A DNA stretch of 64,000 bases from Escherichia coli (GTDB lineage Bacteria > Pseudomonadota > Gammaproteobacteria > Enterobacterales > Enterobacteriaceae): NCBI RefSeq assembly GCF_044324785.1, contig NZ_CP172127.1, one strand, 5' to 3'. The notes below the pieces were generated by a model, which did not search any database, was not told where the DNA came from, and saw only the letters and a list, made by a program, of their open reading frames with translations. Made by a program: the position numbers and the translations under genes. Shown here one piece after another: positions 13,314 to 18,319 of the stretch (positions are counted from its first letter, which is position 1; every line of letters begins with the position of its first letter).

Positions 13314-14384
13314 ATGCAAAAAGACGCGCTGAATAACGTACATATTACCGACGAACAGGTTTTAATGACTCCGGAACAACTGAAGGCCGCTTTTCCATTA
13401 AGCCTGCAACAAGAAGCCCAGATTGCTGACTCGCGTAAAACCATTTCAGATATTATCGCCGGGCGCGATCCTCGTCTTCTGGTAGTATGTGGTCCTTGTT
13501 CCATTCATGATCCGGAAACTGCTCTGGAATATGCTCGTCGATTTAAAGCCCTTGCCGCAGAGGTCAGCGATAGCCTCTATCTGGTAATGCGCGTCTATTT
13601 TGAAAAACCCCGTACCACTGTCGGTTGGAAAGGGTTGATTAACGATCCCCATATGGATGGCTCTTTTGATGTAGAAGCCGGGCTGCAGATCGCGCGTAAA
13701 TTGCTGCTTGAGCTGGTGAATATGGGACTGCCACTGGCGACGGAAGCGTTAGATCCGAATAGCCCGCAATACCTGGGCGATCTGTTTAGCTGGTCAGCAA
13801 TTGGTGCTCGTACAACGGAATCGCAAACTCACCGTGAAATGGCCTCCGGGCTTTCCATGCCGGTTGGTTTTAAAAACGGCACCGACGGCAGTCTGGCAAC
13901 AGCAATTAACGCTATGCGCGCCGCCGCCCAGCCGCACCGTTTTGTTGGCATTAACCAGGCAGGGCAGGTGGCGTTGCTACAAACTCAGGGGAATCCGGAC
14001 GGGCATGTGATCCTGCGCGGTGGTAAAGCGCCGAACTATAGCCCTGCGGATGTTGCGCAATGTGAAAAAGAGATGGAACAGGCGGGACTGCGCCCGTCTC
14101 TGATGGTAGATTGCAGCCACGGTAATTCCAATAAAGATTATCGCCGTCAGCCTGCGGTGGCAGAGTCCGTGGTTGCTCAGATCAAAGATGGTAATCGCTC
14201 CATTATTGGTCTGATGATTGAAAGTAATATCCACGAAGGTAATCAGTCTTCCGAACAGCCGCGTAGCGAAATGAAATACGGCGTGTCTGTAACCGATGCC
14301 TGCATTAGTTGGGAAATGACCGATGCCTTGCTGCGTGAAATTCATCAGGATCTGAACGGGCAGCTGACGGCTCGCGTGGCTTAA
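13314..14384 (+). CDS. aroF: DAHP synthase, tyrosine-sensitive
   Basis: 356 aa [25 protein letters not shown]... Confidence 0.95.
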
Positions 14385-14394
14385 GAGGTTTATT

Positions 14395-15516
14395 ATGGTT
14401 GCTGAGTTGACCGCATTACGCGATCAAATTGATGAAGTCGATAAAGCGCTGCTGAATTTATTAGCGAAGCGTCTGGAACTGGTTGCTGAAGTGGGCGAGG
14501 TGAAAAGCCGCTTTGGACTGCCTATTTATGTTCCGGAGCGCGAGGCATCTATGCTGGCCTCGCGTCGTGCAGAGGCGGAAGCTCTGGGTGTACCGCCAGA
14601 TCTGATTGAGGATGTTTTGCGTCGGGTGATGCGTGAATCTTACTCCAGTGAAAACGACAAAGGATTTAAAACGCTTTGTCCGTCACTGCGTCCGGTGGTT
14701 ATCGTCGGTGGTGGCGGTCAGATGGGACGTCTGTTCGAGAAGATGCTGGCACTCTCGGGTTATCAGGTGCGGATTCTGGAGCAACATGACTGGGATCGAG
14801 CGGCTGATATTGTTTCCGATGCCGGAATGGTGATTGTTAGTGTGCCAATCCACGTTACTGAGCAAGTTATCGGCAAATTACCGCCTTTACCGAAAGATTG
14901 TATTCTGGTTGATCTGGCATCGGTGAAAAATGGACCGTTACAGGCCATGCTGGCGGCGCATGATGGTCCGGTGCTGGGGCTACACCCGATGTTCGGCCCG
15001 GACAGCGGTAGCCTGGCAAAGCAAGTTGTGGTCTGGTGTGATGGACGTAAGCCGGAAGCATACCAATGGTTTCTGGAGCAAATTCAGGTCTGGGGCGCTC
15101 GACTGCATCGTATTAGCGCTGTCGAGCACGATCAGAATATGGCGTTTATTCAGGCACTGCGCCACTTTGCTACTTTTGCTTATGGGCTGCACCTGGCAGA
15201 AGAAAATGTTCAGCTTGAGCAACTTCTGGCACTTTCTTCGCCGATTTACCGCCTTGAGCTGGCGATGGTCGGGCGACTGTTTGCTCAGGATCCGCAGCTT
15301 TATGCCGACATTATTATGTCGTCAGAGCGTAATCTGGCGTTAATCAAACGTTACTATAAGCGTTTCGGCGAGGCGATTGAGTTGCTGGAGCAGGGCGATA
15401 AGCAGGCGTTTATTGACAGTTTCCGCAAGGTGGAGCACTGGTTCGGCGATTACGCACAGCGTTTTCAGAGTGAAAGCCGCGTGTTATTGCGTCAGGCGAA
15501 TGACAGTCGCCAGTAA
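14395..15516 (+). CDS. tyrA: Chorismate mutase / prephenate dehydrogenase (T-protein)
   Basis: 373 aa, recognised sequence; 10 bp downstream of aroF. Confidence 0.95.
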
Positions 15517-15523
15517 TAATCCA

Positions 15524-15551
15524 GTGCCGGGTGGCGTGTTTCACCCGGCAC
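15524..15551. terminator. Bidirectional terminator between convergent tyrA and pheA
   Basis: GTGCCGGGTG...CACCCGGCAC inverted repeat. Confidence 0.75.
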
Positions 15552-15558
15552 GATTTCA

Positions 15559-16719
15559 TTATGCCGGATCGACTGGTACCACATTCTCGCTTGGGTAACA
15601 GCCCAGGACTTTCATCGAGCGAGTGATTTCACCTAGCTCTTTCAACGCCTGTTGCATTTCCGCTGATTCCAGATTGGCCTGAATATCCAGATAAAACATC
15701 TCTTCCCACGGGTTTCCGTGAATCGGGCGTGATTCCAGACGGGTCATAATCAGATTGTGGTTGCGCAGTACCAGCAACGCTTCAACCAGCGCACCAGCTT
15801 GTTGGCCGGTCGCCATTAACAACGTCGTTTTCGCCGGAACCTGGTCAGAAACGTTAATGGCTTTACGTGCCAACACCACAAATCGGGTGAAGTTTTGTCG
15901 CTGATTCGCTTCAATACGCTCCAGTACTTGCAAACCGTACAAAGTGCCGCCAGCTTCGCTTCCCAACGCAGCAATATGCGGTGATTTTGCCTGTGCAACC
16001 TTTTCCATTGCCGCAGACGTACTTTCGGTATATTCAATCTTCCAGTGCGGATAACGATTAAGGAATTTGCTGCATTGCTGGAATGGCTGCGGATGGCTGT
16101 AGACCGTATTAATGGTGGATAAATCAGTAGTGCCGGAGACCAACAAACAATGATCGATAGTTAACGTCATCTCGCCAACAATCGACAAACTGGTATGTTG
16201 CAGCAGATCGTAAACGTCGTTTATGGCACCGGAGCTGGTATTTTCAATCGGTACGACGGCATAGTCGGCCTGGCCGGTTTCCACCTGATTAAAAATATCG
16301 GCAAATTTGGCGCAGCCACTTTCAATGAATTGCTCAAAGTGACGGGCAGCGTACTGACGAGCGGCAAGATGTGAATAGGAGCCTTTGGGGCCGAGAAAAG
16401 CAATGCGGGCAGAGTGTGGATTAATTTTATTGAGATGTTGCTGGAGCAAAGCCTGCTGAGTTAATACGGAATCTTCAATGATGAGCTGGAACAGGCGAGT
16501 AATGTAATGGGCGTCCAGATGGTGCGCTTTACCGAGCGTAATTAATCTTTCCAGTAAATCGCGTTCACGATCAATATCACGTACCGGGCGATGCGAGAGC
16601 AGTTTGGCTTTTCCCACCTCGACGGCCAGTTCGCGCCGCTCTGCCAGTAATGCTAATAATTTTTCATCCAGCGCGCTGATTTTCTCACGCAGCGCCAGTA
16701 ACGGGTTTTCCGATGTCAT
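15559..16719 (-). CDS. pheA: Chorismate mutase / prephenate dehydratase (P-protein)
   Basis: 386 aa, recognised sequence. Confidence 0.95.
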
Positions 16720-16740
16720 AGTGTTGCCTTTTTTGTTATC

Positions 16741-16776
16741 AATAAAAAAGGCCCCCCGATTTGGGAGGCCTTATTG
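16741..16776 (-). promoter_or_regulatory. pheA transcription attenuator (terminator hairpin between pheL and pheA)
   Basis: Minus strand reads CAATAAGGCCTCCCAAATCGGGGGGCCTTTTTTATT. Confidence 0.85.
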
Positions 16777-16818
16777 TTCGTCTTCGCATTCTGTTTCACA
16801 CGACGAAACGCCTCCCAT

Positions 16819-16866
16819 TCAGGGGAAGGTAAAAAAGAATGCGAAGAAAAACGGTGTGTGTTTCAT
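16819..16866 (-). CDS. pheL: pheA leader peptide (15 aa, seven Phe codons)
   Basis: Minus strand ATGAAACACACACCGTTTTTCTTCGCATTCTTTTTTACCTTCCCCTGA = [15 protein letters not shown]. Confidence 0.9.
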   Translation of the reverse strand: [15 protein letters not shown]

Positions 16867-16920
16867 GTTTGTTTCCTTAAGTGACTTCAGTACAGTACCC
16901 GTACTGTTTTCACGCTGTCA

Positions 16921-16950
16921 ACAAAAAACGCGCCCGAAGGCGCGTTGGCG
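16921..16950 (-). terminator. raiA terminator
   Basis: ACGCGCCCGAAGGCGCGT hairpin followed by a T-run on the minus strand. Confidence 0.7.
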
Positions 16951-16969
16951 ATACACTCAATATAAAGGA

Positions 16970-17365
<396 letters not shown>

Positions 17366-17534
17366 TCAAAATGTGTGATGGAAATCTCATAATTTTGTCA
17401 CTTTTTGTCAACGAATCTTTTTTGTGAGAAATCGCAGGAAGAGATGTTTTTTTACTTGAGGAATATCTCAAAGCGAGCCATATTTGATGAGATCGATAGT
17501 GACTAAATCGCTTCAGTTTCACAACAAACAGAAT

Positions 17535-17567
17535 AAAAAAACGGCAGCTCAAGGGCTGCCGTTTTGT
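17535..17567 (-). terminator. bamD terminator
   Basis: CGGCAGCTCAAGGGCTGCCG hairpin flanked by A- and T-runs. Confidence 0.7.
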
Positions 17568-17581
17568 GTTTCAGGTTTCTG

Positions 17582-18319
17582 TTATGTATTGCTGCTGTTT
17601 GCGGCGATGATTTTCGCTACTTTTTCAGCTTGCGCATTCATTTGCATCTGACGGTATGCATTTTCCATCAGCGGCAGCGCATCACGCGTAGCCTGGGTAT
17701 CCGGGTAGTCGCGCAACATGCCTTCTACGCGGTTAACGACGGCAACCCATGCGCCACGTTCTGTATAGTACTCGGCCACGGAGTATTCATATTTCGCCAG
17801 ACGATCTTTCAGGAATACCAGACGTTTGGTGGCATCGGTGGTGTACTGACTGTTCGGATAGCCGCGCACCAGTTTGGAAAAGTCACTAAACGCAGCTCGT
17901 GCATGTTGAGGATCGCGATCGCTACGGTCAACGCCAAAGAACCCTTGCAGCGCACTGTCATCCAGCGCCATATTGGTCAGGCCACGCATGTACATGACAT
18001 AATCGATATTCGGATGGGTCGGGTTAAGGCGAATAAAACGATCGATGGCAGCCTGTGCTAACGGCAAATCGGCGTTTTTATAGTAGGCGTAGATGAGATC
18101 CAGCTGCACCTGCTGCGAATACGGACCAAACGGATAGCGATTATCTAACGCTTCCAGTTGCGTTATTGCCTGTCTCCAGTTACCGTCCTGCAGCTTTTGT
18201 TGTGCAGTCGCGTAAATTTCATTTGGCGGATTATCAGGTACTTCTTCCTTTGACCCCGAGCAACCCGCCAAAAACAGGCTTAGTGTGGCGGCTGCCACCA
18301 GATATTTCATGCGCGTCAT
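17582..18319 (-). CDS. bamD: Outer membrane protein assembly factor BamD (YfiO), TPR lipoprotein
   Basis: 245 aa, lipobox LAGCSG. Confidence 0.95.

Follow-up and report, generated by a model that had tools for sequence, protein, structure and literature searches.

A common Thr4 allele of the pheL leader peptide in a non-K-12 Escherichia coli genome

We analysed the region around the leader peptide gene pheL in a 64,000-nucleotide stretch of Escherichia coli DNA, referred to here as the window. The features of the region are collected in Table 1. The pheA ORF starts 99 nt beyond the pheL stop codon, and its exact protein carries the PF01817 CM_2 and PF00800 PDT domains. Read codon by codon on the minus strand, pheL is ATG AAA CAC ACA CCG TTT TTC TTC GCA TTC TTT TTT ACC TTC CCC TGA. 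Seven of its 15 codons specify Phe (codons 6-8, 10-12 and 14, in the arrangement FFF-A-FFF-T-F), and the ORF closes with UUC_CCC_UGA. A plus-strand reading of 16819-16866 as pheL was also considered and was rejected, its translation being nonsense.

Table 1. Positions of pheL, pheA and associated features in the window.
Feature	Position	Strand	Description	Basis
pheA	15559..16719	(-)	chorismate mutase/prephenate dehydratase, 386 aa	ORF list; RefSeq annotation of matching regions
A6 run	16729..16734	(-)	between terminator and pheA ribosome-binding site	alignment
Attenuator terminator	16742..16772	(-)	10-bp G+C-rich stem 16772-16748, then T-run	terminator scan
Phe leader attenuator RNA (Rfam RF01859)	16742..16867	(-)	model positions 1-125 of 125	cmscan
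pheL leader-peptide ORF	16819..16866	(-)	15 codons + TGA stop	translation; 48-mer matches annotated pheL
pheL codon 4, ACA (Thr)	16855..16857	(-)	variant base 16856	MG1655 alignment
G for K-12 A	16888	(-)	22 nt upstream of pheL ATG	alignment
TTGACA, presumed -35 of pheL-pheA promoter	16916..16921	(-)	K-12 identical	read from sequence
raiA	16970-17311	(-)	upstream of pheL; own terminator 16946-16927	

The leader RNA was compared with the Rfam family RF01859 (Phe_leader) using cmscan and scored 132.2 bits (gathering score 55; E = 2.4e-25). A match this far over the gathering score indicates that pheL is not a chance ORF. Seven of the 10 base pairs in the terminator stem are G-C; the stem is followed directly by TTTTTT, has the same sequence in K-12 and is present in the minimum free energy (MFE) fold. 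When a ribosome footprint was masked with the A site at codons 6-10, an alternative helix was predicted (-36.8 to -33.3 kcal/mol) in which both arms of the terminator are tied up; once the footprint was moved to later codons or to the stop codon, the predicted fold contained the terminator. The classical attenuation switch was thus reproduced in these predicted folds, in silico only. With its score, Phe-codon ORF, terminator, antiterminator and adjacent pheA, the locus belongs to the pheL-pheA attenuator class. From its near-identity to the characterised K-12 attenuator, we infer that Phe-dependent termination and read-through would also operate in vivo.

The initial annotation had placed Thr (ACA) at codon 4 of this leader and had given Ile (ATA) for K-12. 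Reverse-complement translation of the window bore out the former, and the reference genome the latter: the MG1655 gene (b2598, NC_000913.3 2737599-2737646), which begins ATGAAACACATACCG, has ATA at codon 4 when translated from the fetched record, and its peptide starts MKHIP. The variant base is C on the minus strand (G on the plus strand) in the window and T in K-12. Aligned over 270 nt, from the raiA terminator through to where pheA starts, the window and K-12 differed at three places, namely codon 4, position 16888 and the A-run at 16729-16734; between the pheL ATG and the terminator T-run, the C/T of codon 4 is the sole difference. The seven Phe control codons and the attenuator hairpin, described earlier as intact, are both identical to those of K-12.

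The two flanking differences differ in frequency. An exact match to the 99-mer covering 16800-16898, which contains both G16888 and the ACA codon, was found in 682 of 5,425 genomes, and one to the 99-mer covering 16690-16788, which spans the A6 run, in just 11 of 5,425 complete genomes; the A-run ahead of the pheA ribosome-binding site is A6 in the window and A5 in the other E. coli compared, K-12 included. G16888 falls either within the promoter (-10/+1 zone) or at the start of the leader transcript. The TTGACA hexamer is presumed, after the K-12 promoter, to be the -35 element of the pheL-pheA promoter; a simple sigma-70 scan of 16650-17000 returned no promoter, the -10 being weak.

To place the codon 4 difference within the species, alleles were counted as exact 48-mers in 5,426 complete RefSeq E. 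coli genomes (at the threshold of at least 99% identity, a match to a 48-nt query is an exact one). The initial annotation had proposed this comparison of the 48 nt with MG1655 and other E. coli. The window allele (Thr4/ACA) was present in 3,564 genomes (66%), among them O157:H7, O104:H4, an ST95 strain and BL21(DE3), while the K-12 allele (Ile4/ATA) was present in 1,392 (26%). An allele combining Thr4 with Ile13 accounted for a further 428 genomes (8%), leaving, by subtraction, about 30 (<1%) with other pheL variants, one of which, in strain PCN061, has a mutated stop codon. The Thr4/Ile4 difference is therefore a genuine strain polymorphism, and the earlier wording needs refinement in one respect: the minority allele is that of K-12, and that of the window is the E. 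coli majority. The S. flexneri 2a pheL has been stated to be identical to that of K-12 (Gurvich et al., 2011; PMC3082878), which rules out S. flexneri 2a as the origin of the window.

The Thr4/Ile13 allele differs at codon 13, where ACC is replaced by ATC, a change corresponding to window position 16829. Both Thr4/Ile13 sequences examined (NZ_CM149868.1 and NZ_OZ501616.1) also have TGAAAG for TGAATG just past the stop codon, at window position 16817. In the predicted fold the C-to-U change at ORF nucleotide 38 replaces a C-G pair by a U-G wobble, the TGAAAG change falls in a loop, and the fold is predicted to be retained. A non-synonymous change at this codon, the -2 codon of pheL, has been reported to raise +1 frameshifting by ~50% (Gurvich et al., 2011; PMC3082878).

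The direction of the codon 4 change was addressed by a haplotype test and a species scan. For the former, all genomes were put in order of identity to an 846-nt raiA-pheL-pheA segment from K-12, 60 rows were sampled evenly, and the RefSeq product name served as the allele marker, the Ile form being named 'phe operon leader peptide' and the others 'pheA operon leader peptide PheL'. All of the top 15 rows (99.9-100% identity) carried the Ile-form name, and at 99.5% identity and below every row except one carried the other. This pattern indicates that Ile4 is tied to a single K-12-like raiA-pheL-pheA haplotype. The species scan was a pattern search of one genome per GTDB species and yielded at least 120 Enterobacterales pheL genes; its pattern fixed a 10-residue part of the peptide, so that it informs on the variability of codons 2-5 and not on conservation elsewhere. 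The peptide begins MKHTP in Escherichia albertii (codon 4 ACT), in Citrobacter amalonaticus (codon 4 ACC) and, among the matches listed, also in Pseudenterobacter timonensis. E. albertii is the closest outgroup among these matches, which include no entry for E. fergusonii, E. marmotae, E. ruysiae or the E. coli representative. Since E. albertii also has Thr and Ile4 is linked to one haplotype, parsimony makes it most likely that Thr4 is the ancestral state of Escherichia and that Ile4/ATA is derived and arose once. This most likely polarity depends on the haplotype linkage and on E. albertii, a single close outgroup, compared at a position that evolves fast.

Sequence identity also bears on the origin of the window. 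The initial annotation had suggested that the window may not be MG1655, and this proved correct, the two sharing 97.1% identity over 3 kb. The closest of the 5,426 complete RefSeq E. coli genomes, strain N3, was 99.2% identical whether 4 kb or 24 kb (window 5000-29000) was compared, and most stood at about 98.6% or lower. Through a look-up of the exact PheA protein, window positions 14059-18219 (4,161 nt) were found to be 100% identical to SNEV01000001.1 of the draft assembly GCA_013355125.1. Judged by these identities, the window comes from a natural genome of the E. coli lineage that is unrepresented among the complete genomes searched and appears unusually distant from them.

Two rearrangements were observed in this neighbourhood in other E. 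coli. Some genomes have a gene for a 329-aa phage-type integrase directly upstream of pheL in place of raiA (at 198-1187, 200-1189 and 197-1186 in the three compared), and in these the homology to the window starts at the raiA/RaiZ terminator hairpin (window ~16940-16947). This arrangement suggests an integrative element whose attachment site is the 3' end of raiA/raiZ. In many genomes an IS4-family insertion lies in the bamD-raiA-pheA neighbourhood, and their matches to the window are split in two around the IS4 transposase; the window is without this insertion (~17400-18300, the bamD-raiA interval).

Taken together, the locus is best explained, with a probability of about 0.93, as an ordinary pheL-pheA attenuator of a non-K-12 E. 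coli that carries the common Thr4 allele, with the Thr/Ile difference effectively neutral and Ile4 derived. Attenuation of pheA is an established mechanism. In this leader, a ribosome would translate the 15 codons and, if charged tRNA-Phe were scarce, would stall within the seven Phe codons; the stall would free downstream RNA to form the antiterminator, and RNA polymerase would read through into pheA. If tRNA-Phe were plentiful, the ribosome would reach the stop codon, the terminator hairpin with its U-run would form, and transcription would end. Codon 4 belongs to the N-terminal spacer formed by codons 2-5, which is variable; it precedes the control codons, and every RNA helix lies 3' of it, a location from which the Thr/Ile difference is expected to be effectively neutral. 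As neither the seven Phe codons nor the terminator nor its switch with the antiterminator is altered, attenuation is not expected to be affected.

Several observations bear on the equivalence of the two alleles. In the Rfam alignment the variant base lies 5' of every Phe_leader helix, in an unpaired segment of weakly conserved consensus positions. Folding with ViennaRNA predicted the same MFE structure for the ACA and ATA leaders, with the variant base unpaired in both, and identical energies (-52.2 kcal/mol from the presumed 5' end and -51.7 kcal/mol from the ATG); in the masked folds the variant base took no part in the antiterminator/terminator switch. By this sequence analysis, with the polymorphism outside the Rfam helices and the predicted folds and energies equal, the earlier expectation that attenuation would be unaffected holds. 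Across the species representatives (at least 120 Enterobacterales), codons 2-5 vary freely and some 14 different amino acids occur at position 4. Independently, Gurvich et al. (2011; PMC3082878) found pheL to be variable except at the AUG, the regulatory Phe codons and UUC_CCC_UGA. They reported that three wild-type codons ahead of CCC_UGA are enough for wild-type +1 frameshifting and that the Pro at position -10 has a two-fold effect on the frameshift, and they concluded that the frameshift is without effect on pheA expression. Given the Rfam position, the equal folds, the variability among species and these published data, codon 4 is implicated in no known property of pheL. We infer from these comparisons and predicted folds that Thr4 and Ile4 are probably neutral alternatives.

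It is improbable, but conceivable, that the difference is functional, with the ATA of K-12 slowing the leader ribosome, or making it sensitive to the minor tRNA-Ile, so that basal read-through, or the timing with which the pause is released, would differ from that in ACA strains such as the one of the window. In E. coli, ATA is rare and is read by a minor, low-abundance tRNA-Ile, and the two leaders may therefore be translated at slightly different rates. Such a slowing would be a property of K-12, not of the window. Two further points would fit a functional role: codon 4 is ATA in 0 and ATC or ATT in 8 of the at least 120 species representatives listed, and in the ensemble the variant base has a slightly different pairing probability in the two alleles (0.04 as C vs 0.27 as U). 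On the other hand, position 4 is among the most variable of the leader in the matches listed, the base is outside every helix and leaves the MFE unchanged, both alleles persist in E. coli at high frequency, and one non-control codon before seven Phe codons would be expected to have little leverage. A consequence of this kind, in which the two major alleles are non-equivalent and the basal set-point of pheA attenuation in the K-12 lineage lies slightly off that of the ACA majority, we regard as very improbable; if it were true, textbook attenuator parameters obtained from K-12 would not represent the species.

An error of sequencing or assembly as the source of ACA at codon 4 was considered solely because one base is involved, and its probability is close to nil: the exact 48-mer is present in 3,564 independent complete genomes, counts that refute such an error, and ACA is also found in the draft assembly that matches the window perfectly over 4,161 nt. 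The initial annotation had offered a strain polymorphism or an error of its own about K-12 as the source of the discrepancy, and only the former stands, since the reference pheL does not likewise carry ACA; the MG1655 sequence, with its ATA codon and MKHIP peptide, refutes any such error about K-12 outright.

The pheL allele of the window is already known and annotated, and finding it here is ordinary; Thr4 implies no new biology. What it illustrates is that K-12 is not always the E. coli consensus, its codon 4 being a minority allele (26% of complete genomes). That the window is not MG1655 also provides context for other findings made in it.

Among the known systems close to that of the window, K-12 MG1655 shares the locus and the gene order bamD-raiA-pheL-pheA-tyrA. 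The pheL ORFs of the two agree at 47 of 48 bases and have the same Phe codons, UUC_CCC_UGA end and terminator, while the window differs in having ACA/Thr for ATA/Ile, G for A at -22 and one extra A before the pheA ribosome-binding site. With the RefSeq 'pheA operon leader peptide PheL' (RF01859, PF28163), as found in O157:H7, O104:H4 and BL21(DE3), the ORF of the window is identical; relative to this form, the window is set apart by its G16888 leader haplotype, shared by 682 genomes, and by the rare A6 run. The pheL peptide of E. albertii is also identical to that of the window, although it is encoded with synonymous changes (CAT ACT ... TTC vs CAC ACA ... TTT) and the flanking region is 91.3% identical. 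Finally, in its Phe codons and UUC_CCC_UGA end, the ORF of the window matches the group A pheL genes of Gurvich et al. (PMC3082878).
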